From Candidatus Wolfebacteria bacterium (GTDB taxonomy: Bacteria > Patescibacteriota > Minisyncoccia > UBA6257 > UBA9933), in assembly GCA_024654025.1 (NCBI GenBank), contig JANLIR010000002.1:21885-85884 (forward strand): a DNA stretch of 64,000 nt. The letters run 5' to 3'. Within the stretch, counting starts at the first letter, position 1; each line of letters opens with the position of its first letter. Position numbers and translations under genes: made by a program. The notes under the pieces were generated by a model. The model saw only the letters and a list, made by a program, of their open reading frames with translations. It ran no database searches and was not told the DNA's origin. Positions 2,900 through 59,000 of this stretch are shown piece after piece.

Positions 2900-3283
2900 T
2901 TATTTCAAATCAACCTTCCTCCTTCCACTGCCGACTGTTTTTCTTACATTGCCTCTGACTGTCCGTGAATTCGTTTTTGTCCTTTGTCCTCTTACCGGAA
3001 GCTTTCTTAAATGGCGGCTCCCGCGATAACTTCCGATTTCTTTCAGTCGAGAAATGTTTGTTTTTATAACCTGCCTTAATTCATCGCCGATTTTATGATT
3101 TTTTTCAATATAATCCTGGATTTTTTTAACCTCCTCAGAAGTAAGGCTTTTAACTTTTTTCCCGGCCTCGATTTTTATCGAGTCCAAAATTTTGGCAGCT
3201 GTTGTTCTGCCTATTCCGTAAAGATGAGTTAACCCGATATCCACTCTTTTATTGTCCGGTATATTTATTCCTATTAAACGCAT
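2900..3283 (-). CDS. rpsM: 30S ribosomal protein S13
   Basis: MRLIGINIPDNKRVDIGLTHLYGIGRTTAAKIL is the canonical S13 N-terminus. Confidence 0.9.
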   Translation of the reverse strand: MRLIGINIPDNKRVDIGLTHLYGIGRTTAAKILDSIKIEAGKKVKSLTSEEVKKIQDYIEKNHKIGDELRQVIKTNISRLKEIGSYRGSRHLRKLPVRGQRTKTNSRTVRGNVRKTVGSGRRKVDLK

Positions 3284-3292
3284 GGTAAAAAA

Positions 3293-3409
3293 TTATCCTT
3301 GTCTTTGTTTATGCTTCGGATTTTTACTGCAAATAACATAGACTCTGCCGCCACGCCTGACAGTTCTGCAATTTTTGCAAATTTTTTTTACCGAAGATCT
3401 TACTTTCAT
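3293..3409 (-). CDS. rpmJ: 50S ribosomal protein L36 (38 aa; below the ORF-track size cutoff)
   Basis: Hand translation of the minus strand gives [38 protein letters not shown], with the L36 zinc-ribbon C..C..C..H pattern. It lies between infA and rpsM as expected. Confidence 0.75.
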
Positions 3410-3418
3410 TTTTATAAA

Positions 3419-3634
3419 TTAAAGCCGTCTAATAATTCTGCCTCTTTCTCCGTCAGGAGAAAGCTCTAACAAAACCGTGTCGCCAGGCATTATTTTAATG
3501 TAATGCATCCTCATCTTGCCCGAAAGATAAGCAATTATTATATTTCCGCTCTCCAGTTCAACCTTAAAATTCGTTGCGGGCAAATTTTCTATAATCCTTC
3601 CCTTCATTACCGCTTTCTTCTCGGAATTCGACAT
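3419..3634 (-). CDS. infA: Translation initiation factor IF-1
   Basis: 71 aa with an S1-like OB fold (MKGRIIENLPATNFKVELESGNIIIAYLSGKMR...), positioned upstream of rpmJ. Confidence 0.85.
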   Translation of the reverse strand: MSNSEKKAVMKGRIIENLPATNFKVELESGNIIIAYLSGKMRMHYIKIMPGDTVLLELSPDGERGRIIRRL

Positions 3635-3675
3635 GTAGAGATAAATACTAAATGAAATCGCAATAAAGTCAACCC

Positions 3676-5217
3676 CTAATTAATAATCACATTAACTCGG
3701 CCCTGATTAAGAGGAATTTTTGAAACCCAAAACGGCCAAAACGAAAAATCAGCTTTTTCAATATTGGGATATGAATAAATAAGGGATTTCAGCTCCGCCT
3801 CGGACTTACCGGAGATTTTTTGCCTGAAAGAATTCACGTCCAGAGGCTCCCAAAAAGTTCCTTTGAATTTAACCGGCAAAGTCATTATTTTGGTTTTCGG
3901 ATCAATTTGGACATTTCCATAACTTATCGAATACTCGTCCTCTTTTAAAATAAGCCGCAAAGAGGTGCCCACTACTTGTTTGGCCATTTGAGTTAAAAGA
4001 TTTATTATATGAACTTTTTTAAACGCCGTCATCGACATTTCTCCGTCGACAAAAACATAAAAATTGCTGTTTTCGTCTGTGTCGGTATTTACCGTTTCCT
4101 TTAACACATTAAATTGCCGGCTGCTGTCTATTAGTTTAAATTCGTCACTGGGAATTTGAGAAACTATAAAAACTTCGATTCCGTTTTTTAAATTTTTCTC
4201 CGCTTCCCCTTTCGCGTTTTTTATGTCTGCGTCAGTCGGATACGCCGCTTGCCCGACAAATCCGCTCGCAATCGGAGATTTCGATTCAGCGTAAAATTTA
4301 TCGAATTTGAGAGTTCCTTCAAATCCCGGAATAGTAAATTTACTGACCGAACCGATATTATAAGCCTCCCCTGGTTTTTCAGCCGCCACCTGCGCTTCAA
4401 TGCTTGCGGCAACCACTTGTCCGTTTCCCACTCTTGCGCCGGGAACTGTGATTCGATCTAAAAGCTTGAAAATTTTTCCGTCCGGCGCCTTAAATCTTGT
4501 TCCGCTTACTAATATCTGCTGCTCTGTTGAAAAATTATTATAAATGGTAATACTCCCGCTGGCTTTGCGCTCTACGTATTTTTTTCCTGTTGCCGGAAAA
4601 GGAAAATTTATATTTTTCCTCTGGGAAAAAATCGCAACGGGAATTTGCCGGCTGTTAAGATCGATATCCGTCAGCTTAGAACTCAAAGTCATAGGATTAT
4701 CATATTCCCAAGGAAATTTTTTAATTGAAATTTTAATATCCGCTTTGGGCAAATAGGCGTATGCTCCGTAAACCCCAAACCCCAAAACAACAGCGCCTAA
4801 AATCCAAGCTATCGAAGCCCATTTTTTTCTGGGATTTAATTTCATCTCCGGAAGCCGCGGCGGCAAAGAAATATTAATCGAATCCTGGCGAAGATGAGGA
4901 ATTTCTTTTTCGATCATCTGAGGCGAAGCTTTTCTGCCCAAAACTTCTTGTTCTTTCCTGTCAATCTTCTCAAACAACTTTTCCAACTCGTTGTTTTTAT
5001 TTTTCGGCTCTTCGCTTCCCTCTCCGCGGCTCTCTGCCCAGCTAAGCGGAGAAATAATTTTACCGCTTTTAACTGTGGTTTTTTCTTCCGGTTTTTTTAC
5101 CGGTTTTTTCTCCGCCTGCTTTATGCTAACCGGCTCGGAAACCAGTCCTTTGACATCCAGCTTTTTTATAATATCAACTACTTTTACTTTTGCTTTTTTC
5201 ACGTCTGAATCATCCAT
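3676..5217 (-). CDS. Hypothetical single-pass membrane protein (Lys-rich cytoplasmic N-terminus, one TM helix, ~360-aa extracytoplasmic domain)
   Basis: 513-aa ORF with a single hydrophobic helix WASIAWILGAVVLGFGVYGAYAYL; no recognisable catalytic motif. It occupies the slot between infA and the divergent gpmI. Confidence 0.45.
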   Translation of the reverse strand: MDDSDVKKAKVKVVDIIKKLDVKGLVSEPVSIKQAEKKPVKKPEEKTTVKSGKIISPLSWAESRGEGSEEPKNKNNELEKLFEKIDRKEQEVLGRKASPQMIEKEIPHLRQDSINISLPPRLPEMKLNPRKKWASIAWILGAVVLGFGVYGAYAYLPKADIKISIKKFPWEYDNPMTLSSKLTDIDLNSRQIPVAIFSQRKNINFPFPATGKKYVERKASGSITIYNNFSTEQQILVSGTRFKAPDGKIFKLLDRITVPGARVGNGQVVAASIEAQVAAEKPGEAYNIGSVSKFTIPGFEGTLKFDKFYAESKSPIASGFVGQAAYPTDADIKNAKGEAEKNLKNGIEVFIVSQIPSDEFKLIDSSRQFNVLKETVNTDTDENSNFYVFVDGEMSMTAFKKVHIINLLTQMAKQVVGTSLRLILKEDEYSISYGNVQIDPKTKIMTLPVKFKGTFWEPLDVNSFRQKISGKSEAELKSLIYSYPNIEKADFSFWPFWVSKIPLNQGRVNVIIN

Positions 5218-5281: not shown

Positions 5282-6838
5282 ATGAACACTCTCCGCAGCG
5301 TAATTTTAATAATATTAGACGGCTGGGGCATAGGCGCGGATGATTTTTCCAATCCGATTCGTCTTGTTAATCCGCCGATAATGAACTCCCTAAAAAAACG
5401 ATACCCTTACGGAACGCTTCAGGCGTCGGGAATCACCGTAGGCCTGCCTTGGGGAGAAGAAGGAAACAGCGAAGTCGGCCATTTAAATATCGGCGCCGGA
5501 CGCATTCTCTACCAAAATTTTCCCAGAATTACTTTATCAATAAAAGACGGCAGTTTTTATGAAAATGAAATTCTGAAAAAAACTCTGGAGTACGCCAAAA
5601 GCAATAATTCCAGTCTTAATTTAATCGGGCTTTTATCCGATGCCTGCGTTCATTCTTCTTTCGAACATTTATTGGCACTTCTCGAAGCCGCCAAAAAAAA
5701 TGATTTTCCTCTTGAAAAAATAAATCTCCATCTTATTACCGACGGCAGAGACAGCTCTCCTGAATCAGCCGTTGAATTTATAAATAAAATTCCTGAGCCT
5801 TTTTTAAAACAAATTGCTTCGCTTGGCGGAAGATATTACGCGATGGACAGAGACAGCCACTGGGACAGAACCCAAAAATATTACAACGCCATTACCGGAC
5901 AAGGAGGCACAATCGACGATTATCAAATGCACATCAAAAGCACTTACGCTAGGAAACTTAACGACGAATATATTCCCCCAACTTTAATCGGACCCCAAGA
6001 CCGTTCGATAAAAGAAAACGACGCCGTGATATTTTTCAATTTCCGCGAAGACAGAATGCGCCAACTTGTCCGCTGTTTCATCGAAAAAAATTTTAACCAT
6101 TTTCCCATAAAACAATTTTCCAATTTATTTGTCACAACTATGGTTTCTTACAAAGACGAATTTACCGCTCCCGTGCTTTTTCCAGCGGAAAAAGTTTTAA
6201 CGCCTCTGGGAAAAGTTTTGGAAGAGAACAACAAAATCCAGTGGCGCATCGCTGAAACTGAAAAATACGCCCACGTCACTTATTTTTTTAACGGCCAGCA
6301 AGAATCACCCTTTAAGGGCGAATACCGCGTTTTGGTACCCTCAAAAATAAGCTTCCGCTACGACCAGCATCCGGAAATGATGGCCGGAGAAATTACAAGC
6401 CGTCTTTTAGAAGCCATTAAAGAAAAAGTTTACGATTTTATTCTTGTTAATTTCGCCAATCCGGACATCATCGCCCACACCGGAAATTTCGAAGCCACAG
6501 CAGAAGCCATAAGAGTTATTGACGCCCAAATAGAAAAAATTTACGCCTCCGCAATGGAAAATGACTCTTTTTTGATAATCACTTCCGACCACGGAAACGC
6601 CGAAAGATTAATAGATCCCAAAACCGGCACTCCGGAAACAAAACACGACCCCAATCCGGTGCCGTTTTATTTAATCGCCAAGGAATTCGAAAGACAAAAT
6701 ACCGACCAATATGTGCATCAAGCCGAACATTCTCAAGTTGGCGTTTTAGCTGACGTTGCTCCGACGATTTTAGAACTGATGAAAATTCCCAAGCCCCCAG
6801 AAATGACCGGCCATAGTTTGATAAAATTAATTCTTTAA
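5282..6838 (+). CDS. gpmI: 2,3-bisphosphoglycerate-independent phosphoglycerate mutase
   Basis: The iPGM-type core begins at MNTLRSVILIILDGWGIGADDF (ATG at 5282) and includes ...SGITVGLPWGEEGNSEVGHLNIGAGR. The long ORF-track start at 4991 is an upstream read-through artefact. Confidence 0.8.
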   Translation: MNTLRSVILIILDGWGIGADDFSNPIRLVNPPIMNSLKKRYPYGTLQASGITVGLPWGEEGNSEVGHLNIGAGRILYQNFPRITLSIKDGSFYENEILKKTLEYAKSNNSSLNLIGLLSDACVHSSFEHLLALLEAAKKNDFPLEKINLHLITDGRDSSPESAVEFINKIPEPFLKQIASLGGRYYAMDRDSHWDRTQKYYNAITGQGGTIDDYQMHIKSTYARKLNDEYIPPTLIGPQDRSIKENDAVIFFNFREDRMRQLVRCFIEKNFNHFPIKQFSNLFVTTMVSYKDEFTAPVLFPAEKVLTPLGKVLEENNKIQWRIAETEKYAHVTYFFNGQQESPFKGEYRVLVPSKISFRYDQHPEMMAGEITSRLLEAIKEKVYDFILVNFANPDIIAHTGNFEATAEAIRVIDAQIEKIYASAMENDSFLIITSDHGNAERLIDPKTGTPETKHDPNPVPFYLIAKEFERQNTDQYVHQAEHSQVGVLADVAPTILELMKIPKPPEMTGHSLIKLIL

Positions 6839-8117: not shown

Positions 8118-8675
8118 TTATTTACGGAAAGCGCTTATCAAATAAAACGCCACTATCCCAAAAGCCACTACTACATTTAATGACTCCTTCCGGCCATACA
8201 TCGGAATTTCCAAAATTTTATCCGCTTTTTTCAAAATCGGTTTCGGCAAACCCTTAATTTCATTTCCAACGATTAACGCAATTTTGTTTTTCAGTTTTTT
8301 AGTTTTTGAGTATTTTAGTTTATTATACGGAATTGAATTCTTACTTTGCTCAATCGCGAAAATTTTATATTTTTCCTTTTTGAGCTTATCAATCAATTTT
8401 GAAATTGCTTGTGCTGAGCCCTTCGGTCCTGAGCTCAGGGTCGAAGGACGCGCCGAACCAATTTTCTCCCAAGCTACATATTTTTCCGCTCCCAAAGAAA
8501 CTTTTGTCAGTTGCTGTCTCGGCCGTCCAAAAACATCCGCCGGAGCCGGAGTTATCCCGCATAAATAAAGTTTTTTAATTCCCACCGCATCCGCAGTCCG
8601 GAAAATAGACCCCACATTATGCAAACTCCGAATGTTGTAAAGTAAACCAACCATAATGACTCTATTATAACCCAA
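8118..8675 (-). CDS. SpoU/TrmH-family RNA 2'-O-methyltransferase
   Basis: 185 aa, SPOUT-like (IMVGLLYNIRSLHNVGSIFRTADAVGIKKLYL...LIVGNEIKGL). It overlaps the start of the downstream giant gene by 11 nt. Confidence 0.6.
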   Translation of the reverse strand: MGYNRVIMVGLLYNIRSLHNVGSIFRTADAVGIKKLYLCGITPAPADVFGRPRQQLTKVSLGAEKYVAWEKIGSARPSTLSSGPKGSAQAISKLIDKLKKEKYKIFAIEQSKNSIPYNKLKYSKTKKLKNKIALIVGNEIKGLPKPILKKADKILEIPMYGRKESLNVVVAFGIVAFYLISAFRK

Positions 8676-11600
8676 TTTTCATATACCAATCCTCTCTTCC
8701 ACTTTCATACGAATAAGAACAACTATTACTATAAAATAAATGCTCTCCGCCCGCGTAAAGATCCTCTCTGCTAACAGCGTTTTGCCACTGATTCCTTGAC
8801 CATTGGTCATCATTATTTCCGCCAACATAACTATCAACCTCCAATAACATCCAATATTTTTTGTTGACCGCAAACGCTACGGGAAAAGAAAAATTAAAAA
8901 CTAAATCAGAAGAAGGGCTATAAATATCAGCCAATACCGAACTGGCTAATTGCGAATTCAAATCAGGTCTATCTTTGCCGTCGTCGTTGAATACCGACAA
9001 TTTTAAATTAGCGCCGTCTGTTCCTGTGTTATGCATAACCTTCACAACGGCTTTATCAAACTGAAAATCTTTTTCCGGAACAATACTCTGCGCGCTTTTG
9101 GCAACGCATCCCGAAAAATATTTGTTCCCAAAAGGATAGCTCCAGTTATTGGCTTGAGTTTGAGTTATTTCAAAATTAATATCAGGGTATTTCCAATTCG
9201 CCGTCAAAGCGCTTGAAGTTACTCCGAATTCATCTTTAGCGCGCGCGCTTATTGAAAAATCATCGCCCGACGTAACGGACTTTACTGTACCGGTCGCATA
9301 GACAGCTTGCCACTCGCCAGAATCATTGTATCGAATCTCATAACTTAACAAAGATTCAACAGTATCTGAGTCACTGGCTTTGGACCAATCAATAGCGAGT
9401 TTGGAATTTTGCTTATCAAAAACCAAATTAATAGAGCCTGTCAATTGTGGCGCCTCATGAATAGGTTCCTTGCCAAAATAATATTTCTTTTTATCAACAG
9501 CTACTAATCGAAAAATTTCCGGGCCGCCGTTTGGTATGCTTGAATGCTCAAAAGAATAATAGCCGGCAGTTATGTAATCGCTCGCTGAAAAAGATGTTTG
9601 ATCAGCGGTTTTTTCAAGCGGAACAAAAAATTTATTAATCCCCAAACTGGAAATAGCAAATCTTTCGGTGCCTATTCCCAAACCATTGCATCTTTGGGGA
9701 GTGTCCGCTAAAATCAAGGCCTTAAATCGCGATTCTCCTCCCGTTGACGCACACGGAATATACCGGACGCCGATTACCTTAAAAAAATCTTCCGCCGGCC
9801 ACTTCCAATTATAGCCGTCGCCAAAAGGATTCTCTATGTACGTTTGTTTCGATGGCTCGCTATTTAAATAAAAAACAACGACTTTCCAGCCATCAGGCGC
9901 GTATAAACTCGGCGCGATCGGATATTGGCTATATTTTCCTTCAACCAAATAATCGCTTTGATTTCTAGGGTCTTTATAAAAATAAAGTCCGGAAAGAAAG
10001 CTCGGCGCCGAAACTGTTGTTGTGGCGCTCGCCAAAATCGAGCTACTCGCGTCAACCGCTTCGACTAATAAATCATAATTTCTGCCAACCTCATCAATTA
10101 CAATACTTGCCGACGTGGATGAAGATTGATTTAAAATAGCGCTTGAAGAAGCATCTAATATTCTGTAACCAATCTCTGTGCTTGAAGAATCAATACTAGT
10201 TACAGCTTGCCAACTCAAATCTATCCTCATTGAATCTTTAACAAAAACAGCCGAAAGGCCGTTTAAAATCGAAGAAGAAGTTGCGTCAGAAGTTGATGTT
10301 GATAAAGTTGATGTTGACGCGGTTTGCTCTTGCGAATAAGAATACGAATCGATTATTTGAGTACCCGAAGCGCTGGAAATTAAGTTTTGATTAGAAACCA
10401 AAAACAAAGCTCCTTTAGTATTATTTAAAGCCTGGCTCCACGATAAATCCGCACCCTGACATGGAGTAGCGGCGTGGCAATTCGCGCCGATTTTAAAATA
10501 ACCTTGGCTTAAAATTTTATTTCCATTTTCGAAATTTCTTTTTTTAATGTTTGAGAAATCCTCGTCAGCAGCCAAATACTGAATGGAAAAATTACTTAAA
10601 TCAACATCGCTTTCTTCAGAATTAAAAATTCTCGCGTATTCATTACCTTCATCCGCGCCTTCAGGGTTATAAACAACTTCCGTGATTTTTAACCTTAAAC
10701 TGCTTACATTAGTTGAACTTGCGGTAGAAGTGGAATTTGTAGAAGTTGAATTAGAACTAGACGCCTGATTAGACGCTTGATTAGATACTTGAGAATTTTG
10801 AGTTGTGTTATTAGCAATAACTACTCCGCCTCCGCCATAAACAACCGAATTTTCCGCTTTCGGCGTTCCGCCGACATACGCCGACGTGTGCCAACCAAAA
10901 TCACCGCCATTTCGCTCCATTGTCTTTTTCAAATAATTGTCGCCAGCTAACCAACTAGAACCAGCCAGAACTTCGTCCATTAAATTACATTGTCCATCAA
11001 ACAATCTTAAACCCTCGTCGCTGTTAGAAAGCGCGCCGGTATAAATTAAATCCGCCTTAACGTTGAGCGTGGAATTATCATCCGTTCTTTCCAAAAGGAT
11101 AAATCCGCCGCTAGATAAATTTCTGTTTTTCAATTGAGATAAATTAACTTCTATTTGCCTGCCTTTGTTAATTATTTGCCAATTAGAAAGATCAATATTT
11201 TGATTTGAAATATTTTTCAATTCTACCCATTCGTCGTTAGCGCTGACAGCTGAACCCATCCACGCTACTTCATTTATTAAAACTTTATTCCGTAAAGGAG
11301 TTTGAGAATTATTAAAAAGACATTTAGCAGCTACCTGGTTTGTTAAATTAATTTCCGTTTGAGAACCGCTGGATTTTTTATCGCTATTTTTTTCAACAAG
11401 CGAAGAAGTTGAATTTTTATCCGAATTTTTATCAATGGTTGTTTTTTGGCTGTCGCTTTTCTTTACGTTTAGACTCTTTGAACTACTACTATCATTAGGG
11501 CCAGAATTGCCAACTATTGATAAGTCCTTTTTTAAAGAAGCAATATCCTTTTTCAACGAGCTAATTTCACTTTTTAAAGATTTTATTTGGCTATTTTCAT

Positions 11601-12894
11601 CTCCGGCTGATTTAGATTTAACAGAATTCTTCGTATTTCTACTGCCTGAACTAATTTCATTCTGAACACTCAAATCATTAGTTAAAGAAACTTGGTCCGC
11701 TTGAGTAAAATCGTTTTGATTGCCAAAAAGCCCAGAAAAAAACTCTCCCACCGAAGAAAGAGTATTCTTTACCGTGCCAACAGCGCTGTCCCAAAAAGAA
11801 CCAATCACACCCTTGGCTTTTTCCGTTTCTCCATATAAGGAAACAATTGGCACCGTAGGAATATCTATTTTTGTCGCACTCGGCTGATAATCAACAACCT
11901 GGGCGTTTTCTTGCGCGTCTTTAAAAAAATTATTTATCACCTGAACGCCGGTTAAAACAACTTGTTTTGAGAGAAGATTCCAATAAGCCTGGTGAATGAT
12001 AGGATCGCTTATTAAAAAATTTTCATCTCCATCTGAAGCTTCAAATGGATAAAAATTTCCAAAATTATCGTGCCTGAAATAAATTTTCTTATCCGTGGTA
12101 ATTTCCGATGATTCACTGGTTAATTTTTTATATTTAGGATCATCAATTGTGTCTTTGCTGTAAAAATTTTCATTGGAGTATTTTGCTAATTTAATAAAAC
12201 AATCTTTTGTGTCAAAACAAGAAATACTTCCTTTAATATTCGAATTTGTTAAATTAGAAAAATTAATATTTTGGCTTTCTGCGGCCCATTTTTCATAAGG
12301 ATCAGCATCGTTTACTGCTTGATTTATTTCCGCGTGAGTATCGTTTCTGGTATGAGCCGGAACGCCTAAGTCTTCAATTAGATGCAAAACATAGCCCAAT
12401 GCCTTAAAAGAATTTTCATAAGTGGCGTAATCCGGCTTTACTGCCGCGCTGGTATTTCCCAGTCCGGCAAAAACATACGCCTGAACTGCTTTTGAATAAG
12501 TTTGATCGCCTTGGTAGAGTGAATATCTTCCTTGAAGTTTTTGATCAAACGCCCAATTTACAGAAGAAGTCGCGTCTTTTATTGAAAGGAAGATTTTTGA
12601 AAGAAGGTAAATTGTTTCTTTTGAAATATCTCCTTGTTTTTCTCCAGTCCAGCCCTGATTTAAAACCGGATCATAAAAATGATTAATCCATCTTGGCGGG
12701 GTGTCTTCTTTTATAGATCCGTTAATTATCCAATCCGCTTGCTCTTGAGATATTTTTACTCCGGAATTTTGGTTATAAACTTTTATAATTTCTCTTGTTA
12801 ATTCCTGATGGGTTGGGCTTGGCCAAAAAGCAAGAGACGAATTAAAAGAAAAAATAAATAAAAATAATATAGCCGCAAAGATTTTTTTGATCAT
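8665..12894 (-). CDS. Giant secreted protein with four elements. (1) An N-terminal zinc-dependent phospholipase C / nuclease-S1-P1-like domain. (2) A coiled coil. (3) Two lamin-tail (LTD) domains. (4) Ser/Thr-rich linkers and a C-terminal beta-rich region.
   Basis: Signal peptide MIKKIFAAILFLFIFSFNSSLA. The N-terminal domain carries HFYDPV...GW and YVLHLIEDLGVPAHTRND, resembling the PLC motifs SHFYDP and LHYLGDVNQPMH. The coiled coil is heptad-like (SLKSEISSLKKDIASLKKDLS). There are two LTD signatures, LINEVAWMGSAVSANDEWVELKN and LKITEVVYNPEGADEGNEYARIFN. 1409 aa. Confidence 0.6.
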   Translation of the reverse strand: MIKKIFAAILFLFIFSFNSSLAFWPSPTHQELTREIIKVYNQNSGVKISQEQADWIINGSIKEDTPPRWINHFYDPVLNQGWTGEKQGDISKETIYLLSKIFLSIKDATSSVNWAFDQKLQGRYSLYQGDQTYSKAVQAYVFAGLGNTSAAVKPDYATYENSFKALGYVLHLIEDLGVPAHTRNDTHAEINQAVNDADPYEKWAAESQNINFSNLTNSNIKGSISCFDTKDCFIKLAKYSNENFYSKDTIDDPKYKKLTSESSEITTDKKIYFRHDNFGNFYPFEASDGDENFLISDPIIHQAYWNLLSKQVVLTGVQVINNFFKDAQENAQVVDYQPSATKIDIPTVPIVSLYGETEKAKGVIGSFWDSAVGTVKNTLSSVGEFFSGLFGNQNDFTQADQVSLTNDLSVQNEISSGSRNTKNSVKSKSAGDENSQIKSLKSEISSLKKDIASLKKDLSIVGNSGPNDSSSSKSLNVKKSDSQKTTIDKNSDKNSTSSLVEKNSDKKSSGSQTEINLTNQVAAKCLFNNSQTPLRNKVLINEVAWMGSAVSANDEWVELKNISNQNIDLSNWQIINKGRQIEVNLSQLKNRNLSSGGFILLERTDDNSTLNVKADLIYTGALSNSDEGLRLFDGQCNLMDEVLAGSSWLAGDNYLKKTMERNGGDFGWHTSAYVGGTPKAENSVVYGGGGVVIANNTTQNSQVSNQASNQASSSNSTSTNSTSTASSTNVSSLRLKITEVVYNPEGADEGNEYARIFNSEESDVDLSNFSIQYLAADEDFSNIKKRNFENGNKILSQGYFKIGANCHAATPCQGADLSWSQALNNTKGALFLVSNQNLISSASGTQIIDSYSYSQEQTASTSTLSTSTSDATSSSILNGLSAVFVKDSMRIDLSWQAVTSIDSSSTEIGYRILDASSSAILNQSSSTSASIVIDEVGRNYDLLVEAVDASSSILASATTTVSAPSFLSGLYFYKDPRNQSDYLVEGKYSQYPIAPSLYAPDGWKVVVFYLNSEPSKQTYIENPFGDGYNWKWPAEDFFKVIGVRYIPCASTGGESRFKALILADTPQRCNGLGIGTERFAISSLGINKFFVPLEKTADQTSFSASDYITAGYYSFEHSSIPNGGPEIFRLVAVDKKKYYFGKEPIHEAPQLTGSINLVFDKQNSKLAIDWSKASDSDTVESLLSYEIRYNDSGEWQAVYATGTVKSVTSGDDFSISARAKDEFGVTSSALTANWKYPDINFEITQTQANNWSYPFGNKYFSGCVAKSAQSIVPEKDFQFDKAVVKVMHNTGTDGANLKLSVFNDDGKDRPDLNSQLASSVLADIYSPSSDLVFNFSFPVAFAVNKKYWMLLEVDSYVGGNNDDQWSRNQWQNAVSREDLYAGGEHLFYSNSCSYSYESGREDWYMKIGL

Positions 12895-12897
12895 AAA

Positions 12898-13530
12898 TTA
12901 ATTCTGGTAAAGCTTCCAAATCTGCGCTGGCTTACTGAATTGAAAAATTATTGAGCCTTGATATTTGCCCGCGGGGATTGTGCTAGTTTCCTCTGCGGCT
13001 GTATCATAAAAAGTATGATTTTTTTTCTGAATATATTCATACGCAAACTTTTTTGAATCTCTGTCCCAAAAATCAACTTCTTTCAAATTAGACCATTCAA
13101 TCGGTAATTTATTTACATACTCCCCCAACCATCCTTCACTTTGTAAACGCACTAACCATTTATACGCTCTTCCCGGGCCTTCAATGCCGATGTAATACTT
13201 TGAAGCAAGCAAAATATCGCCTTTCTTTAAAGCATCCAAATACATAAAATAAGTTTCTTCCGGAGTTTTCCCTCCGTACTTATCGTTTTTTAGAGCGTTT
13301 AAATAATCCTGCTCAGCCGAAAAATAAGCGTCGAATCCCCTTTGAGCAAAATAATCATTGTACAAAGTTTTTAAGATCGGATACCCAACAAAAAGTGCGA
13401 TGATAATCGCCAAAAAACTCAAAACAAATTTTCGATACGATTTCTTTTGGACCGGAGACAGCGAAGAATCGGGTGAAGAATTGAAAGAATCATTTGAACC
13501 GCTTTCCGAATCTTGATTTTGGAGTTCCAT
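12898..13530 (-). CDS. Hypothetical membrane-anchored protein (Ser-rich N-terminus, one TM helix), co-operonic partner of the giant PLC/LTD protein
   Basis: 210 aa; TM helix FVLSFLAIIIALFVGYPIL; its stop is 3 nt upstream of the downstream giant ORF's start codon. Confidence 0.45.
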   Translation of the reverse strand: MELQNQDSESGSNDSFNSSPDSSLSPVQKKSYRKFVLSFLAIIIALFVGYPILKTLYNDYFAQRGFDAYFSAEQDYLNALKNDKYGGKTPEETYFMYLDALKKGDILLASKYYIGIEGPGRAYKWLVRLQSEGWLGEYVNKLPIEWSNLKEVDFWDRDSKKFAYEYIQKKNHTFYDTAAEETSTIPAGKYQGSIIFQFSKPAQIWKLYQN

Positions 13531-14240: not shown

Positions 14241-14846
14241 TTAAAAATTCCCTTCAAGCGTTCCTTTTTTATCTATGGAAAAAATCTCTACATAATGCAA
14301 AATGTCTAAATTTTTAAGATCGTCGATAAAATCTTTGGGCAATTTATTCTTGCTAATCCAAACGCTTTTTTGTAGCATAGAAAACCCGAGGGCAATTAAA
14401 TTTTCCCGCAGCCAATTTCTTTTTCGCTTTTCCTCTTCGGGAATATCAAAAATAACTATCTTTAATTTTCCATCTCTGTCACTTTCTTTCGTATAAATTT
14501 TATAAGGTAATTTATTTTCTTTTTTTAACTTTAACTCATTAAGCTTCTTTTCTCCTTTTTTGGTTATCTTCCATTTAGAACGGTTGTTCTCTTTAGTTCT
14601 TTTAACTAAACCTTGTTTTTGAAGATAACCTAAAAGATTATAAAAACGCTGTTGTTCTTTCTTTTTATATTGTTCGTAACTTAATTTTGAAGAATTTTCA
14701 AAAAGTTCTTTATAGAAAGGGCCGTATTTAATCTTTCGCTTCGCTTTCTTATAAGAGTCGTGATAATTCTTTAAAATAATATCAATTAGGTCTATGCTAA
14801 GCTCCCCAAATTTCTTCGCAGCTTCCAAAATAAATTCTGTTTTCAT
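14241..14846 (-). CDS. Small protein with an N-terminal winged-helix domain and a C-terminal Cas2-fold (Cas2/VapD-like) domain
   Basis: ...FYNLLGYLQKQGLVKRTKENNRSKWKITKKGEKKL is wHTH-like. KIVIFDIPEEEKRKRNWLRENLIALGFSMLQKSVWIS matches the Cas2 beta1-alpha1-beta2 pattern (VxxYDI..RRR..L.K.L...G.R.Q.SV). The likely ATG is at 14846; the track ORF starts with TTG at 14855. Confidence 0.5.
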   Translation of the reverse strand: MKTEFILEAAKKFGELSIDLIDIILKNYHDSYKKAKRKIKYGPFYKELFENSSKLSYEQYKKKEQQRFYNLLGYLQKQGLVKRTKENNRSKWKITKKGEKKLNELKLKKENKLPYKIYTKESDRDGKLKIVIFDIPEEEKRKRNWLRENLIALGFSMLQKSVWISKNKLPKDFIDDLKNLDILHYVEIFSIDKKGTLEGNF

Positions 14847-14860
14847 GATGAGCAATTAAT

Positions 14861-50768: not shown

Positions 50769-53700
50769 TTATTGCGTTGCCTTCTTTAACTCCTGAAGTT
50801 GCGCCAAAAGTTTTGTTATCTTGGCTTCAATCTCTTGAATCAAAGTTCTTAATTGCTGAATTAATTGCGCTTTAGAAGATGCCTGCTCTGGCAATTGCGG
50901 AACATTCGCGCTTGAACCGGCTAAAAGTTGGTTAATTTTCGCCCGAGTCGCCGGCCCGACATCGCCATATCCAAGATTGCCGGATTTTGCGATTCCATAT
51001 TTTTCCTGAAATCTTTGAACAGCTCTTCTTGTGGCAGTGCCGAAGTATCCGCTTATTATTCCTTCAGGATAAACATCGCTGTCTTTTGCTAAAAATTCCT
51101 GCAGAGATTTTACCTCATTGTCGGTTATTCCCTGCATCAATCTCAATGTAAGTTTTTTAATTAACCCTGTTGGCAATGAAGTTTGCGCTACGCCGGTTAG
51201 CTGCGAAATTGTACTGGTAACAGACGTTGCCGATGAAGTGGCAGTAATAGAAGGAGTAAAACCTCCTCCGCCGCCGGAAGACAGAATTGATATCGGAAGG
51301 CCGCTGCCAGCAACAGCCGCTGGAGCAGCAGGCGTAGCGGAAACCGCGTCCGTCGTTGCCGCTGATTCGTTGTCATTGCTATCCAAAGCTGAAACTTTAT
51401 AGGAATAAGCCGTGCCGTTTGTTAATCCGGTATCCGTGTAGCTCGTTACCGTTGTCTGGCCTAAATACGGATAATCCGAACCGCTTAGACGATACACATC
51501 ATACTTGGTTGCGCCGGTTGAAGCGGTCCATGAAAGAGCAACTTGGCCATTACCAGCCGTAGCCGATAAACTTGTAGGCGTTGCGGGCGCAGTTGAAGTA
51601 GTGGAAATTATTGGCGCAAAAGTTGAAAAGTGGCTTGTTGTCCCTTTTAAGGTTAGGGATGTGAGCGTATCCCAAGTTGCGCCGGTTGGAGCAACTACTG
51701 GTGTTGTTGAAATTTCAGTCCAGTTGTCCGCTGTTGTATCCCAATAACCGATTACGATTTTATTCGCGTCAACCAAACTAGTAATACCCGCGCTAACTAA
51801 TTCCGCCTTAGTCAGCACAATTTCCATATCAACATTCTGGGACAAATTAGTAATTTGTTGTCCTTGGTTAGCGCCGCTTGAATAAGACGCTTCGATTTTT
51901 TTGCCTTTAGTTCCGAAAACTTTAACGTTGTTTTTATCGGGCACATCCATTGTATTTTGCACTGTTACCTGCGTCTGAGTTGTGTCCGATCCTAAAGCGC
52001 CCTGAGGAATATTTAATTTTACGTCATCAGTTTGAACAACTCCTCCTTGAGTCGGAGTAAACGACTGCGATGTCTGTTTAGCATCAAAACTTACGGCCTG
52101 CAGATTAACTGTTAAGCCCGCAGACGGAGCGGTTACGCTGATTGGATTAGCTGTGTTATACCCGTCGGCAATGGCTTGGACTTTCCACAAACCGCTTCCC
52201 ACATTTAGAGTAAAGCTGCCGTCTCCTTCTGACATTGCTCCTGCCCAACCCGTACTTCCAGTTTGTTCAGCCCAAACTCTGGCGCCTTCTATTGCCGTGC
52301 CATTATATTTAACATACCCGGTAATGCTTTGAGAATTTTGAGTTAGAGACAAAGACAAACCAGCGGTGGTTGTGCTTATTGATTGATTAGCCAATCTTGT
52401 CCCTAAAAACCCGGGCTTTCCAACTCCTATATCGTAATTCCCTCCCCTTAATTTCATTGAAAAAGTTCCGTCATTGGCAACTCTCGAGCCCCCGCCTCCA
52501 GCCGGACTAGCTGCCCAGACAAAGGCGTCTGTTGAACTGCCGGAAACCGTTCCTGAAACAACGTAAAAGTCAGTTGCGCTCAAATCTATAATTATAGAAG
52601 TGCTGGCGGTGATTGCCGTTGTAGTTGGAGTGATTGGTCCGAAACCGGGAATTCCTCCTTCAATGGTGTAGGTAGTTGAACCCGAAAAAGGAATTTGAAT
52701 GCTGTAAGCGTCGTAATCGGAGCCGACACTGGAAGTGGTATTAGTGAATCCTCCTCCTAAAGTACTGTGCGCGCCGATAAATACATTGCTGAACGTATTT
52801 TTTGGCTTCAGGCGAATTTCCAAAGTTGCGGTATTAACCGCGACGGTTACTGTTGTGCTGGCAGTCACCGCATTACCGCTATTTAACTGCCCTTTATAAA
52901 TTTCTCCCTGACCCATAACAGCGGCGTGAAGATAAAGATTAGTAAGGCCTGTTGTTGTTTTGAACGTAAAAGCGCCAGCGCTATCGGTTTTAGCCCAACC
53001 CATTCCTGGGCCGAATTCTCCTTGTGTAACCCAAGTATCAACCTGAGAAACACCGGAACCGTTTTTTGAAACCGTGCCGGAAATCGTAATAAAATTAGCG
53101 CTGCTTAAAGTAAAGTTAACCGTCGGGCTAGTGGAATTAGTTACCACAACATTTGTTTGTTCCGACAGCTGTCCGTATTCCTTACTGAATCCGCCGACAC
53201 GATAATTAGAACAAGGTGAAACATACATCTTGTAATAGCCTTGAGAATCGGTAAACGCGCTCCCTCCGCCAGGGCCTCCTGAACACCAGGCATTCAAATC
53301 CACGTTGGCAATCGCGTTCCCGGAACCGTCTTTAACGTAGCCGGAAATACTGCTCGTTGGCGGTTCTAATTTAATCGTTATCACCGGCGTGCTCGCGTCA
53401 AGCGCAAAAGCGCTACTGCTAACAACCACTATTTCTTTTTCAACTGACCCAGGCATACCAGGCCCGCCAACGCCTATTTTATAAGTCCCTTGGCTTGCGT
53501 AAAGCGAAAAGTATCCGGTGCTGTTAGGCATAGTCGCGCTGCCTTTTCCGTTTGCGATTGGCTGGTAAGCTGTTACCCACATCTCGTTATATTTACTTGC
53601 TGAAAGCGCGCTGCCGGCTCCATCAACAATTCTGCCGTAAATTTTTCTGTCAGCCGCGGTAAAAGTAAGGTTAGAGGTAATCGTTGTGGTGGAATCGGTT

Positions 53701-55724
53701 ATTTCAAACATCTGCCCGCTCGGTTCAATCAACGGCGAAGTGCTTGTCGTTGATTGAGAAGGCGGCAAATGCGCCTCAACTCTATAAAATCCATTGCTCG
53801 GCAAAGCAACGGCATAAGCCACCTGACAAGTGCTGGTTGTGCTGAAAAATGACGGCATCACGCCTCCTGGTCCCATTTGCGTATTTGTTCCTTGAGGCAT
53901 TGCAAACACCGCGATAGTTTTATTTCGTCCGTCAGCGTCGCAACTTGCTTTTGTTGTTATTGTGCCGGAAACTTTTCTGGTCGTCGCGCCTTGCAAAGTC
54001 AAAACTAGCGGACTGGAAGATGAAGTTCCTGATTGAATATTTGCGCCGGGAGCCGGCAAGCGAGCGCCAGTGGGGTCGTATGCCCAAACCATTCCCATAC
54101 CCGCAATATTATCTATTGTGTAAACTCCGGTGCTTGTGCTGAAAGTTATTCCCGAGCTCGCGGCTGTATAAACTTGAGGCCCGCTCATCCCGGCGATAAC
54201 CAAACTCACATTGCCGCTGGAAGTAACCGTAGAAGTACTCACTCCGGCTAAAAGATCAACCCGAACATTAAGAGGTCCGGAAATATCAAAAAAAGTATTT
54301 TGGTTCATATCCGACATCATTCCATCAGAAGTAACTATAGTGATCGGTCCGCCTTGGGCGCCAACAGGAACCGTAGCCGTGATTGAAGTAGCGCCCCAAG
54401 CAGTTGTGGAGGCGGGAATCGGCTGAAGCGGCCCAGTACTTGGGTCAAAACCTCCGGAAAACATCACCGTTCCAGTGTCAGTCCCAAAATTAGTTCCGGC
54501 AATTGTTACGGTATCCCCTACGGCCCCTGAAGTCGGAGAAACCGAACTGATTGTCGGAAGCAGTGCCGTAGAAACAGTGATACTGCTATTGGAATAAGAG
54601 AGAGGAAGATTGTTTGTATCAGTAACTCCCGAAATTGCCAAGCTTATAATCGCCCCTCCGGTTAAACTTAAGTTTTTAATAGTTACGCTATTGCCCATAA
54701 ATTCTATAAACGAACTCCCATAACCGCCGCAACTCAAAGCAGAACCGTTCAAAGTATAATTTGCGCAATTCGTGGCTAAATCTCCACGCAAATTTTTACT
54801 GGCGTTAATTACTATTTTATTAGTAAACGCGTTAACAGACGTAACTGTCGGCGGAGTCGAAGTAGAATTCGGAATAAATTGGACAAAACTACTCGTGGCA
54901 TTGCCGGCCGCGTCGCTCATCGCCAGCCACAAAGAAGAATAAAACGTGCTCCCGATGCTAAAATTAGCAGTCCCGCTAGCGCTAACTCCGCCCGTAGCTA
55001 TTGGCGCGGAACTCGTTGAAGTTGTGTAAACAGAAAGAAGTCCTTGTTCGCCAAGACCACCCGAACCGGTATCGGCCAAATAATAATTTCCACTGGAATA
55101 CGTAAGCGTTGCCTTAGTTGAATCAGGAATTTGCGAATGCGTATCAGCTACTACTTGAGCCGTAGTGGTGGCGCCAATTGTGGGAGAGTTAGCAGATGTA
55201 ACAACACTGCTTGTGCCTGCCGCGATATTTACCGTAACGCCCTGGCGGACAGAAGTAGTGGCTTCAGGATAACCATTGTCAGTCCATGCGTTTGAAGTTC
55301 TTAAAACCACAAAAAATGTTCCGGTTGCCGGCGTGGTTGTGGCGGCCGCGATGTTTATCCTTGTTGTGGTGGCTATATTAACGCTTGAAGTCGCTAACAA
55401 AACATCGGCTGGGTCAAATTGGAAATCAGAATTCGCGTCTTTATATACGCCTACCCAGTCAAAACTGGACGAAGCAACCGCGGTGCTTGTCGCGCTCGTT
55501 GACGTAGAAATCAAAACCGTCGTGCTTGATAAGGTCTCGCCAGCGGTAATGGATAATTCAAGTCGTAAAACAGGAATCATTGATCCTGCTTTTACCGTGC
55601 TTGTCGCGCTGACCAGCGCCGTTGAAGTGCCGGTTACCGCGGCCTGCGCGTTATTTAATAAACCGACCGTAAAAAAACTGGCGACTAAAAAAATCGCCCC
55701 GACAAAAAAGAATTTTCTAAACAT
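50769..55724 (-). CDS. Giant (1651 aa) Thr/Ser/Gly-rich cell-surface protein with Cna-B-like domains, an Fn3 domain, a PG_binding_1 domain and a C-terminal coiled coil
   Basis: Signal peptide; repeated GYVKDGSGNAI...-type beta-sandwich modules. Fn3 is at ...LSWTASTGATKYDVYRLSG.... The peptidoglycan-binding domain is ...LMQGITDNEVKSLQEFLAKD...GYFGTATRRAVQRFQEKYGI. The terminal heptad coiled coil is QLIQQLRTLIQEIEAKITKLLAQLQELKK. Confidence 0.6.
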   Translation of the reverse strand: MFRKFFFVGAIFLVASFFTVGLLNNAQAAVTGTSTALVSATSTVKAGSMIPVLRLELSITAGETLSSTTVLISTSTSATSTAVASSSFDWVGVYKDANSDFQFDPADVLLATSSVNIATTTRINIAAATTTPATGTFFVVLRTSNAWTDNGYPEATTSVRQGVTVNIAAGTSSVVTSANSPTIGATTTAQVVADTHSQIPDSTKATLTYSSGNYYLADTGSGGLGEQGLLSVYTTSTSSAPIATGGVSASGTANFSIGSTFYSSLWLAMSDAAGNATSSFVQFIPNSTSTPPTVTSVNAFTNKIVINASKNLRGDLATNCANYTLNGSALSCGGYGSSFIEFMGNSVTIKNLSLTGGAIISLAISGVTDTNNLPLSYSNSSITVSTALLPTISSVSPTSGAVGDTVTIAGTNFGTDTGTVMFSGGFDPSTGPLQPIPASTTAWGATSITATVPVGAQGGPITIVTSDGMMSDMNQNTFFDISGPLNVRVDLLAGVSTSTVTSSGNVSLVIAGMSGPQVYTAASSGITFSTSTGVYTIDNIAGMGMVWAYDPTGARLPAPGANIQSGTSSSSPLVLTLQGATTRKVSGTITTKASCDADGRNKTIAVFAMPQGTNTQMGPGGVMPSFFSTTSTCQVAYAVALPSNGFYRVEAHLPPSQSTTSTSPLIEPSGQMFEITDSTTTITSNLTFTAADRKIYGRIVDGAGSALSASKYNEMWVTAYQPIANGKGSATMPNSTGYFSLYASQGTYKIGVGGPGMPGSVEKEIVVVSSSAFALDASTPVITIKLEPPTSSISGYVKDGSGNAIANVDLNAWCSGGPGGGSAFTDSQGYYKMYVSPCSNYRVGGFSKEYGQLSEQTNVVVTNSTSPTVNFTLSSANFITISGTVSKNGSGVSQVDTWVTQGEFGPGMGWAKTDSAGAFTFKTTTGLTNLYLHAAVMGQGEIYKGQLNSGNAVTASTTVTVAVNTATLEIRLKPKNTFSNVFIGAHSTLGGGFTNTTSSVGSDYDAYSIQIPFSGSTTYTIEGGIPGFGPITPTTTAITASTSIIIDLSATDFYVVSGTVSGSSTDAFVWAASPAGGGGSRVANDGTFSMKLRGGNYDIGVGKPGFLGTRLANQSISTTTAGLSLSLTQNSQSITGYVKYNGTAIEGARVWAEQTGSTGWAGAMSEGDGSFTLNVGSGLWKVQAIADGYNTANPISVTAPSAGLTVNLQAVSFDAKQTSQSFTPTQGGVVQTDDVKLNIPQGALGSDTTQTQVTVQNTMDVPDKNNVKVFGTKGKKIEASYSSGANQGQQITNLSQNVDMEIVLTKAELVSAGITSLVDANKIVIGYWDTTADNWTEISTTPVVAPTGATWDTLTSLTLKGTTSHFSTFAPIISTTSTAPATPTSLSATAGNGQVALSWTASTGATKYDVYRLSGSDYPYLGQTTVTSYTDTGLTNGTAYSYKVSALDSNDNESAATTDAVSATPAAPAAVAGSGLPISILSSGGGGGFTPSITATSSATSVTSTISQLTGVAQTSLPTGLIKKLTLRLMQGITDNEVKSLQEFLAKDSDVYPEGIISGYFGTATRRAVQRFQEKYGIAKSGNLGYGDVGPATRAKINQLLAGSSANVPQLPEQASSKAQLIQQLRTLIQEIEAKITKLLAQLQELKKATQ

Positions 55725-56000: not shown

Positions 56001-59000
56001 TTAGTTCAAGAAACTACTGGCTTGTCCGTTGATTGGCGTCGCAATTGACGGATCTATCGATGAAATATCGTTAACTCCATCATTCCAAGTAGCGGTCGAT
56101 ACCACAATCTGGTAAGACCTCGTAATTGGAGTAGTGGCATTTGATGCCAAGCTAGTTGCAGACCCTAAGTCGGCTTTCACGATCAAGTACAAGCTCTGTC
56201 CGGCAGGAACTGTCCAACCGGTTGTGCTATTCAACACAACTGACGTAGCAGTAGTAGATGACAATGTCGTAGAAGCGAGCAATGTCGACTGCCTATCGCT
56301 GCCATAAAGGCTGATAGTGACGATAGTCGAAGATTGCTGTAATGATCCTACCTGTTTCATTGTCACCGTCTTAATGATTGTGTCGTATCCAGCGCCAGCA
56401 GCAAAAGTAAACTGTCCAACAACTGAACCGTCCGCAAGACCGGCGGCTGCCGTAAATGTCGGGCCAGAAGCCACGCCCAAGGTAGTCCTATAAAGCGTTA
56501 CTGCCTGGCTGTCATAAGCAGCTGACGAAGTTGTGGAAGTAGAAAGAGCGATGCTGGTTGTGGTAGCTCCAGAAGCGTTGTTGTAAGTAAACTGCGCCAA
56601 TCTAAAGTTATGAGCAGCGCCTGAAGAAGCGGCTGCCGCAAAACCTACAGTATCGGCAACCACGCTCAATGACTTGTAAGAGCTGGCCGGTACAACAAAT
56701 CCTGTCAACGGGAAGCTGATTGCGCTACCAGCGCTTTCAGTACCATTAGACAATAAAGTTGCGCCGTCGTACAACTTGAAATTAGTCCAAGACCTATCCG
56801 TTGAAGTAGTGGTTGTTGCCGCGCTCTTCATATCGTTTATAGCGACATTAGTCAAAGCGCCGTCTCCACTGCTATTGGCGGTAAATCTGAACTTAGCCAC
56901 TGTAATACCATTTACTCCCATTCCGACAAACGCGGCATTCGGAGTAGCGGAATCAATAGCTCCGGTCACAGTACCACCCGTTGTTATGCTGACCGTTTGG
57001 CCAGCCACACCGGTAATACTAACTGCGTTTCCAACATTATTGGTCGCGTTAACGCTAGCCAAAGTAACCAACGAACCGCTGTTCGTGGTTGCGCTGTTAG
57101 AAATGTTTGAGTAAACATCAACAATCGCAATCGCGCCCGGCGCGATTGAAACAGCCGAGCCAGTATTGAAGGTGTAAGACGTATTGCTGGCAACAGTCGG
57201 TTGAGTATTGCCTGCTTGAACGCCGTTAACCTTAACCGTCAAAGCTGTCATCCAGTCGGAAAGCGTTCCGCTGGCAGTAGATGTTACGGTAACTCCTGTT
57301 AAACTAACACTGTTAACTTGACCCGCGGTCAAATTAAACGACGCGATTCTTGCCTGGCTTGCTCCAGCTGTAACTATCGGCGTACCCAAAGCATAGTTCA
57401 AAGACGATGCTAATTGAGTAGTGGAAAGCAACACCGACAAAGGATACCCGCTAACCGCTGAAACCGTAACTGTCGCGTAGCTGGTGTAGCTTTGCGCGGT
57501 ACCGCTGGCAATAGCTACTGTCATTGTTCCAGTCGCGCTAGAACCGACATCAGCGTAAACATTCAATGTTCTGGTTTGATTAGCAGAAATAATGTAATTC
57601 AAGCTGCCTGAGCCAATCGCAAATGTAGTGGCTCCGGTAGTTTGGGTTGTCCCAAGCTGAACGCCCTGATCATCAACAACTCTTACGTTGCTGTAGTTAT
57701 TGGCGCCGGCGCTCATTGTCATGTTCAACTGGTTTATCTTTACGCTGTCTCCGGAAGCCAATAAATCTAACTTGGCCAACACTTGGTTGGTGTTTCCAGC
57801 AACAACATTGGAAGCCGGCGAAGCAGCATTTCTGCTCATAACCAACCCTCCATTGTTAATGGTTGCGGTGTAGAAACTTATCGGCCAAGTGGCATACGTA
57901 GCTCCTATTCCTACGCTGTAAGTCGCGTCAGTAGCAGTAATATCAGCTGATTGCTGAAGTGAAAACGCGAAAGTTCTGTTAACTCCGCCAGTTATATCAA
58001 CATAAACCTGCAAAACAACAGTTTGCCCTGACGACAAAGACAACGGAGCGCTTGACAAATCAAATGTCAAAACATTGTCAGAGCCAAGCTGGGCAATAGC
58101 ATTGCCAACTTGAGTTCCTGCTTGCATCAATTTGATGTTTTGCAAGTAGCTCGGAGTAACGCTTCCGACATTAAGTAATCGCAAACTATTAACTTTAACC
58201 GGTTGATTGCCGACCTGTACCGTAAACTGGGCAGCCAAATAATTGGTCTGTCCGGCATTTACAGTAACAGCGCCTGTGCTGACCGCGGAAATCGTTAAAG
58301 TAGCGAGGTTGGTAACGCTTACCAAAGCAAACTGACTGCCGCTTACCGGGAGATTACCCGAAACAGCGCCTGTTCCGCTAAGAGTTACGTCAGCCGCAGC
58401 CGCGACGCCAAACGACATCACGTGGCTGGCGCTTGAAGTAGCGGTGGTCGCGTCCAAAGAAACAGTAATGGTCTTGGTTGTACCGGCAGGAACAATAAAG
58501 AGGCCATTAGCATTGTTAAAGTTAACTTTGCCAAGAGAAGTTCCCAAATTGGAAGCCAATCTGGTAACGCCGTCGTAAAGATACATATTGTTTATGTCCG
58601 CATCTTGCGACAAGCCGCTTCTTGTTATTTTTAAACCGGTAACCGTAACCGCAGCTGATCCGGCAGAGAAGTTAAGTTTCAAAACCGGAGTATTTACAGC
58701 GCCGATAGCCAAATTGGCTGACGCTGGATTATCAGAAGCTAAACTAACAGCAACCGCTCCAGTGACTGGAGTGGTGCCTGTGCCCGTTCCAGTGCCTGTG
58801 CCTGTTCCAGTTCCAGTGCCGGTTCCGGTTGAAGCCAAAGAGTTAATATAACTCCTTGTTATCGGACCGAAGTAACCGACAGCCGGAGAAATTGCGTTCG
58901 CTGCCTGATATTTCGCCACAGCGGCTTTGGTCCTGGATCCGAAATAAGTAGTTTCGTTTCCAACTGAACCAGCTCCGCTGGCGGAAACTGTAAATCCTTG

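Follow-up and report, generated by a model that had tools for sequence, protein, structure and literature searches.

A two-gene module on the minus strand of a Candidatus Wolfebacteria genome, consisting of a small gene (13530-12898) followed by a large gene (12894-8665) within the 64,000-nt stretch analysed here (the window), very probably encodes an active, exported zinc phosphodiesterase of the phospholipase C (PLC) lineage that works with a partner membrane protein. The enzyme domain, or head, occupies the N-terminus of the 1409-residue large product and is a divergent member of the PLC/nuclease P1 superfamily on its PLC side, clearly nearer to the PLCs than to the nucleases in both sequence and structure. 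The source organism is a member of the Patescibacteria (candidate phyla radiation, CPR); an episymbiotic lifestyle is probable from that group membership rather than from the window. Judged from the sequences, what appears to be new is a PLC-side head that falls below the Pfam threshold and carries a remodelled zinc site, its multidomain setting and its obligate partner. A literature search returned no description of the family, and no counterpart for the combination of head, stalk, lamin tail domains (LTDs), variable tail and obligate NTF2-like partner.

Predicted fold and putative zinc site of the head domain

The kinship of the head with PLCs is visible only with a family profile; a single-sequence phmmer search of the head against the PDB gave chance matches only. 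A homologue search found 37 relatives, whose named sources are mostly metagenome-assembled genomes (MAGs) of Patescibacteria (one is labelled Omnitrophota), giving with the query a 38-member alignment. Positions that vary little or not at all in this alignment are the T-H histidine close to the N-terminus and those of the motifs E-D, R-W-x-N-H-F-Y-D-P, L-H-L-x-x-D-x-x-V-P-x-H-T-R-x-D-x-H and P-Y-E. Searched against the PDB, the family profile matched B. cereus PLC chains (E 1e-5, 1AH7) and Listeria PlcB (4e-5) and no S1/P1 nuclease chain at E<=10; the S1/P1 nuclease family PF02265 likewise had no match at E<=10 in the head, and none in the 38+33+39 relatives. The zinc-dependent PLC family PF00882 (Zn_dep_PLPC) is matched at E<=0.01 by 28 of the 38 family members (best 1.2e-7). 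Aligned by hhalign, the family profile and the 1AH7 core match with 95% probability, and the N-terminal segment aligns locally with 1AH7 at E 1.2e-4.

An AlphaFold2 model of the head from the 38-sequence alignment (pLDDT 89, pTM 0.90) is predicted to adopt the all-alpha PLC fold, and all of its top 15 Foldseek matches in the PDB are zinc PLCs (B. cereus, clostridial alpha-toxins, PlcB; probability 0.95-1.0). An earlier note on this DNA, made from its letters alone, had proposed an exported, zinc-PLC-like N-terminal domain, and this is borne out, as the modelled fold is that of a PLC rather than an unrelated one and the ligand positions are conserved. The combination of fold and trinuclear zinc cluster that marks the S1/P1 nucleases is also predicted for the modelled head. 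These nucleases (Aspergillus S1 5FB9, SmNuc1 8QJL, AtBFN2 3W52) further resemble it in having the N-terminal residue as a ligand, the role predicted here for Phe23, in a basic residue soon after the catalytic Asp and in the short spacing between residue 1 and the first His. The head shares only 16-17% identity with the phosphatidylcholine-preferring PLC of B. cereus (1AH7) and L. monocytogenes PlcB (8CQM), from which it differs by a family-specific insert of ~55 residues between HFYDP and the core helix (with an invariant Trp and Gln), an added three-stranded sheet, a long C-terminal helix and an invariant Arg68. Known PLCs are single-domain proteins of ~245 residues that have no partner, whereas here the domain heads a 1409-residue multidomain protein with an obligate membrane partner.

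Zinc ligands were mapped in precursor numbering after the 1AH7 sequence had been confirmed residue by residue, and their invariance was checked in 33 + 39 long relatives (72). A global hhalign alignment with 1AH7, in which the family-specific insert was wrongly paired with the PLC N-terminus, was discarded in favour of the local alignment for this region. The resulting correspondences are as follows (PLC residue, residue of the large protein, source).

Trp1 (backbone N and O): Phe23; predicted cleavage site, aromatic in 67/69 relatives
His14: H29; local alignment of the N-terminal segment
Asp55: D64; local alignment of the N-terminal segment
His69: H72; PDB profile search and local alignment
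His118: H171; PDB profile search and hhalign
Asp122: D175; PDB profile search and hhalign
His128: H181; PDB profile search and hhalign
His142: no aligned His, the candidates being the invariant D185/H187; PDB profile search and hhalign
Glu146: E201; PDB profile search and hhalign

The conservation of zinc ligands expected from the earlier note thus stands for the seven aligned side chains, which are invariant in the 72 long relatives although overall pairwise identity among these is only 23-38%, and for the aromatic character of residue 1; it does not extend to PLC His142. The alignment suggests that the third zinc site has been remodelled, and we propose that the invariant Asp185/His187, six residues after H181, are the likely replacement that completes it. 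The invariance of the aligned ligand positions and of ~20 nearby residues at such low overall identity argues for a working active site. The same observation makes it highly improbable that the head is catalytically dead and that the protein serves solely as an adhesin or S-layer-like surface structure, a reading to which its great size, repetitive Ig-like architecture, variable tail and the loss of register at the canonical His142 position would otherwise lend themselves.

The partner membrane protein and the spread of the family

The small open reading frame (ORF; 12898-13530, minus strand, 210 codons) ends with a stop codon separated by 3 nt from the large gene's ATG; its product and NUV83_00225 from the same taxon are 100% identical. 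Its features are:

12898..13530, minus: partner gene, 210 residues; disordered N-tail, transmembrane (TM) helix, long helix, NTF2-like ectodomain
13372-13428, minus: partner TM helix, residues 35-53
12901-13284, minus: NTF2-like ectodomain, about residues 83-210, with the invariant motif D-x-Y-G-G-K-T-P-x-E-T

A homologue of the partner lies directly upstream of the head-domain gene in every locus first examined. When a partner HMM was run on 80 loci from a scan of species-representative genomes, a match was found upstream on the same strand in 77, and the remaining three have <120 nt of upstream DNA, so that the two genes form an obligate pair in all testable cases (77/77). The distance from the end of the partner ORF to the first matched mature residue is at most 200 nt in 73 loci (median 109 nt), and most of it is taken up by the sequence coding for the signal peptide. 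A small TM protein encoded 3 nt from the large gene had already been remarked upon as co-transcribed; the single TM helix is predicted and the gap confirmed, and the pairing is stronger than that remark implied. The Liptonbacteria locus L027 has two partner-like ORFs (1631-2062 and 5386-5895) within 4 kb, suggesting that some genomes hold partner paralogues and perhaps paralogues of the module.

The ectodomain has the alpha+beta cone fold of NTF2-like proteins, and VirB8 and the PBP2a N-domain are among the matches of the partner. Like VirB8/CagV and the N-domain of PBP2a/PBP5, the partner consists of a short tail in the cytoplasm, a single TM helix and an NTF2-like cone outside the cytoplasm; it differs from them in lacking membership of their sequence families, in its own invariant GGKTPxET motif and in being tied to a phosphodiesterase instead of secretion or cell-wall machinery. 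Neither an LPXTG motif nor a C-terminal anchor was found in the sequence of the large protein. Because the large protein lacks an anchor of its own and shares its side of the membrane with the partner ectodomain, the most likely role of the partner is to dock or regulate the enzyme on the surface of the symbiont itself.

The same shared location would also suit an immunity protein or inhibitor that blocks the zinc site of newly made enzyme and so shields the producer's scavenged membrane until release. Strict pairing in 77/77 loci, the translational coupling suggested by the 3-nt gap and the invariant acidic/basic loop D-x-Y-G-G-K-T-P-x-E-T, which resembles an interaction surface more than a generic NTF2 feature, fit such a role. 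We nevertheless regard it as unlikely, since bitopic NTF2-like proteins are usually scaffolds, as are VirB8 and the PBP2a N-domain, and we know of no immunity proteins for the characterised zinc PLCs of B. cereus, Clostridium and Listeria.

The family is large, almost entirely from Patescibacteria, and present across most Parcubacteria-type lineages. An exhaustive profile search over 1.84 billion representatives (clusters at 50% identity) returned 6802 matches at E<=1e-3, 3775 at E<=1e-10 and 1027 at E<=1e-30. The best 150 relatives are mostly 1000-1850 residues long and always carry the head at the extreme N-terminus (domain start at residue 1-29); public records name the proteins 'lamin tail domain-containing protein' or 'hypothetical protein'. 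When one genome per species was scanned, 448 matching stretches were obtained, nearly all titled as Patescibacteria lineages, with Wolfe-, Nomura-, Lipton-, Yonath-, Niyogi-, Azam-, Yanofsky-, Staskawicz-, Magasanik- and Sungii-bacteria among those named (taxonomy labels of MAG records were used as written). Some pair-bearing loci (L081, L015, L068, L021 and others), many of them in third-party (TPA) assemblies, are labelled Nanoarchaeota, Omnitrophota, Dehalococcoidales, Gammaproteobacteria or Saccharibacteria, labels that could stem from mis-binning or automatic naming rather than from a genuine distribution beyond the Parcubacteria-type lineages.

Domain layout, variable tail and locus

The large ORF (8665-12894, minus strand) is an unbroken run of 1409 codons whose product matches MCR4275169.1 in NCBI exactly. 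From N- to C-terminus it comprises:

12829..12894, minus: signal peptide, residues 1-22 (MIKKIFAAILFLFIFSFNSSLA); the sole segment with Kyte-Doolittle hydropathy >1.6, with small residues at -3 and -1
11899..12828, minus: predicted trinuclear-zinc phosphodiesterase domain of PLC/nuclease-P1 fold, residues 23-332; putative ligands mapped
11293..11898, minus: Ser/Asn/Lys-rich low-complexity stalk, residues 333-534; S+T+N fraction 0.35, no Pfam match
10945..11292, minus: lamin tail domain 1, residues 535-650; best PF00932 stretch 535-642
10693..10944, minus: Ser/Thr/Asn/Gly-rich linker, residues 651-734; S+T+N fraction 0.44
10330..10692, minus: lamin tail domain 2, residues 735-855; PF00932 E 1.5e-9, 38.7 bits against 34.3 when scanned alone
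8668..10329, minus: C-terminal tail of about 540 residues (856-1409), made up of an FN3/Ig-like domain (residues 881-975), domain X (976-1148), an FN3-like domain (1149-1236) and domain Y (1237-1409)

Hydrophobicity sufficient to span a membrane is confined to the first 22-25 residues. Signal peptidase is predicted to cut after the Ala of S-L-A/F-W-P-S-P-T-H, which would make Phe23 the mature N-terminus; this is the position, six residues before the invariant His, that is aromatic in 67 of 69 relatives. Each motif quoted in the earlier note is present in the ORF translation where it was placed, and so are the coiled coil that it described downstream of the N-terminal domain and its two LTDs. 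The coiled coil lies in the stalk and spans three heptads, I437-L458, with Ile or Leu at 437, 440, 444, 447, 451, 454 and 458. Both LTD copies clear the Pfam gathering score, PF00932 being matched in two stretches of the whole protein (E 8.2e-15, 55.6 bits against a cut-off of 34.3). Matches to fn3 (PF00041) in the tail are below the gathering score (19.9-22.8 bits against 25); the orthologous regions of P0038 and P0039 match fn3 at E 5e-7 and 7e-5, which makes an FN3-like fold likely. Domains X and Y have no Pfam match, and the tail profile gave weak FN3 and lamin-Ig matches only in the PDB. A word-indexed search found 6 homologues of the tail, 4 of them with an LTD match.

Syntenic orthologues, 65-69% identical, were missed by the word-indexed homologue search and were recovered through the loci of the partner. 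They are 1389 (L008) and 1248 (L006/L007) residues long. Identity is 80-84% in the head and LTD1 (82% and 84%, respectively, in L008, the best-conserved parts) as against 47-54% in domains X and Y, so that the head is conserved while the tail is variable, the C-terminal tail being by these alignments the fastest-evolving part of the protein. In L006 (8622-12368; 65% identical) domain Y (window 8668-9186) is replaced by an S/T-rich end, which indicates that the distal end is exchangeable even among close relatives. Two further loci appear split or broken, whether through real splits, frameshifts or assembly errors: L002 (2078-6016) encodes a 515-residue head protein followed by a separate 795-residue protein with LTD and beta-helix, and in L005 (2987-6457) no gene call covers the head region (2987-3727), which lies upstream of an 863-residue LTD and tail protein.

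In the orthologous loci of related genomes the gene order is PaaX-like gene, partner, large gene, SpoU methylase, enolase. The window's PaaX-like gene (14241-14855, minus strand), ~700 nt upstream of the pair, encodes a product of 204 residues that matches the PaaX central Cas2-like domain (E 8.8e-18) and, weakly, winged-helix domains. Its position is kept in L006/L007 and L008, and its product may on that account regulate the module. The SpoU-type methyltransferase ORF (8118-8675, minus strand; PF00588, E 1.6e-28), kept directly after the large gene in orthologous loci, overlaps the last 11 nt of that gene when counted from its first TTG; its real start may be a downstream Met. Farther away, ORFs at 50769-55724 (minus strand, 1651 residues; CarboxypepD_reg, PG_binding_1 and weak fn3 matches) and 56001-59255 (minus strand, 1084 residues; PG_binding_1 match) lie in a region with a G+C fraction of 0.45-0.48 compared with 0.34-0.40 nearby and probably encode further cell-surface or peptidoglycan-binding proteins. 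NCBIfam had no match for either protein of the pair, an Rfam scan of the window returned one tRNA only, and a promoter and terminator scan gave nothing above shuffled expectation.

Mechanism, substrate and biological meaning

The mechanism that we infer, from metal content and cleavage site to surface retention, partner role and substrate, would run as follows. The large product would be exported by Sec, with signal-peptide cleavage exposing Phe23. The first mature residue of B. cereus PLC, like that of nuclease P1, ligates zinc through its free amino group and its carbonyl, and here the same two groups of Phe23 would complete a three-zinc cluster with H29, D64, H72, H171, D175, H181 and E201, probably joined by H187/D185. 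By analogy the head would act as a phosphodiesterase in which zinc-activated water cleaves a phosphodiester; an Asp equivalent to S1 Asp65 is critical for this water-activation and cleavage step (PMC5201275). It would be held on a flexible stalk of ~200 residues followed by the two Ig-fold LTDs, with the fast-evolving, adhesin-like tail probably selecting what the protein sticks to. The substrate would most likely be membrane phospholipid of a neighbour or host, PLC-type cleavage yielding diacylglycerol and a phosphorylated head group and serving envelope breaching, lipid scavenging or both.

Taken whole, phospholipid included, this is our best explanation and a tentative one, and the assignment of phospholipid as the substrate is itself provisional. 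Phospholipid is favoured by the position of the head nearer to the PLCs, by the HFYDP signature, by a lipid need that has no known route and by a CPR precedent, secreted phospholipases having been proposed in CPR predators (PMC8080830). The net charge of the head (-11) does not discriminate between a lipase and a nuclease. The H-F-x-D element is common to S1/P1 nucleases and PLCs (PMC5201275). Accessory domains bear on the question as well; they were counted by Pfam scans of the 72 best-scoring long members rather than of the whole family.

LTD: 64/72
PF00882 (Zn_dep_PLPC): 16/72
Beta_helix: 11/72
PKD: 11/72
fn3: 9/72
SNase: 3/72

Big/Ig-like domains, Glucodextran_B and propellers also occur among the relatives.

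Several observations weigh against a phospholipase. Residues 23-332 miss the PF00882 gathering score (16.5 bits, E 0.0086, against 26.8), and the match appears when the head is scanned alone, the whole-protein scan reporting LTDs and weak fn3 only; of the profiles that the earlier note had named, PF00882 is therefore seen below its cut-off, the LTD is above threshold and PF02265 is unmatched. The aligned counterpart of PLC His142 is missing. Pfam found no PLAT/C2 or other lipid-binding domain in the 72 relatives; the alpha-toxins of C. perfringens and C. absonum carry a C-terminal, calcium-dependent, PLAT/C2-like membrane-binding domain, in place of which the present protein has LTDs, FN3-like domains and the X and Y beta domains. 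The invariant Arg68, at +4 from the catalytic Asp after a Thr-Pro-Pro turn, appears to recall the phosphate-binding Lys/Arg that S1/P1 nucleases have at +3 (PMC5201275). Extracellular nucleases, ExeM and Xds among them, are the best-known carriers of LTDs (PMC6085458, PMC6746945). Finally, SNase in 3/72 relatives and a ComEA-type helix-hairpin-helix domain (HHH_3, E 7.5e-20) in a Yanofskybacteria-type protein (L009/L010, 8512-12534; head, LTD, HHH_3, beta-propeller) link the family to nucleic acids.

The head could instead be an S1/P1-like extracellular nuclease, 3'-nucleotidase or both, degrading environmental or host DNA and RNA at the surface for a nucleotide-auxotrophic symbiont, much as purine-auxotrophic trypanosomatids carry surface 3'-nucleotidase/nucleases. 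The SNase and HhH fusions of a minority of relatives, the Arg near the catalytic Asp, the N-terminal spacing like that of nuclease P1 and the company that LTDs keep with ExeM and Xds (PMC6085458, PMC6746945) all speak for it, and we consider it a real if doubtful alternative. ExeM (Shewanella) and Xds (Vibrio cholerae) resemble the present protein as exported, cell-associated phosphoesterases with a lamin tail domain and long unstructured linkers, but they use endonuclease/exonuclease/phosphatase-fold catalysis and have a single N-terminal LTD, whereas here an N-terminal PLC-like domain precedes two LTDs. The LTD is dispensable for membrane localisation in Xds (PMC6746945) and for most nuclease activity in both enzymes (PMC6746945, PMC6085458), and membrane attachment through the LTDs is only a hypothesis. 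The label 'host-membrane-attacking effector' applied in the earlier note may be too narrow, since the same fold and metal site also serve S1/P1 nucleases.

Some other extracellular phosphodiester, such as teichoic acids, glycerophosphodiesters or phosphorylated glycans of host or own walls, is a very unlikely substrate. The accessory domains of the relatives, mostly carbohydrate- or surface-binding (Beta_helix 11, PKD 11, Big/Ig, Glucodextran_B), would suit it, with Ig-like, PKD and beta-helix tails targeting glycopolymers, and the metal-site chemistry would serve for phosphodiesters in general; however, we know of no member of the PLC/P1 superfamily that acts on teichoic acid, a glycerophosphodiester or a phosphorylated glycan.

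Returning to phospholipid as the substrate, the pair might be a Patescibacteria-wide lipid-harvesting device in which the head, borne on its stalk and directed by the variable tail, clips head groups from host phospholipids and the partner cone captures the diacylglycerol or lipid product and passes it to the symbiont membrane. The cone pocket of many NTF2-like proteins binds hydrophobic ligands. We rate this extension as quite unlikely. If true, it would supply the missing lipid-acquisition route of the lipid-auxotrophic Patescibacteria.

Pathways for lipids and nucleotides are missing from Patescibacteria. A 2024 perspective states that no mechanism of lipid uptake or breakdown has been identified in them and that the source of their nucleotides is unsettled (PMC11665869). 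The remodelled third zinc site is of interest to the enzymology of the PLC/P1 superfamily. As an exported enzyme of phosphodiester-cleaving type that is widespread and always found with a dedicated membrane protein, the head domain is a candidate for nutrient acquisition or host attack, and the module is a concrete, assayable candidate for taking phosphate-ester-linked building blocks, whether lipids or nucleotides, from neighbouring cells.

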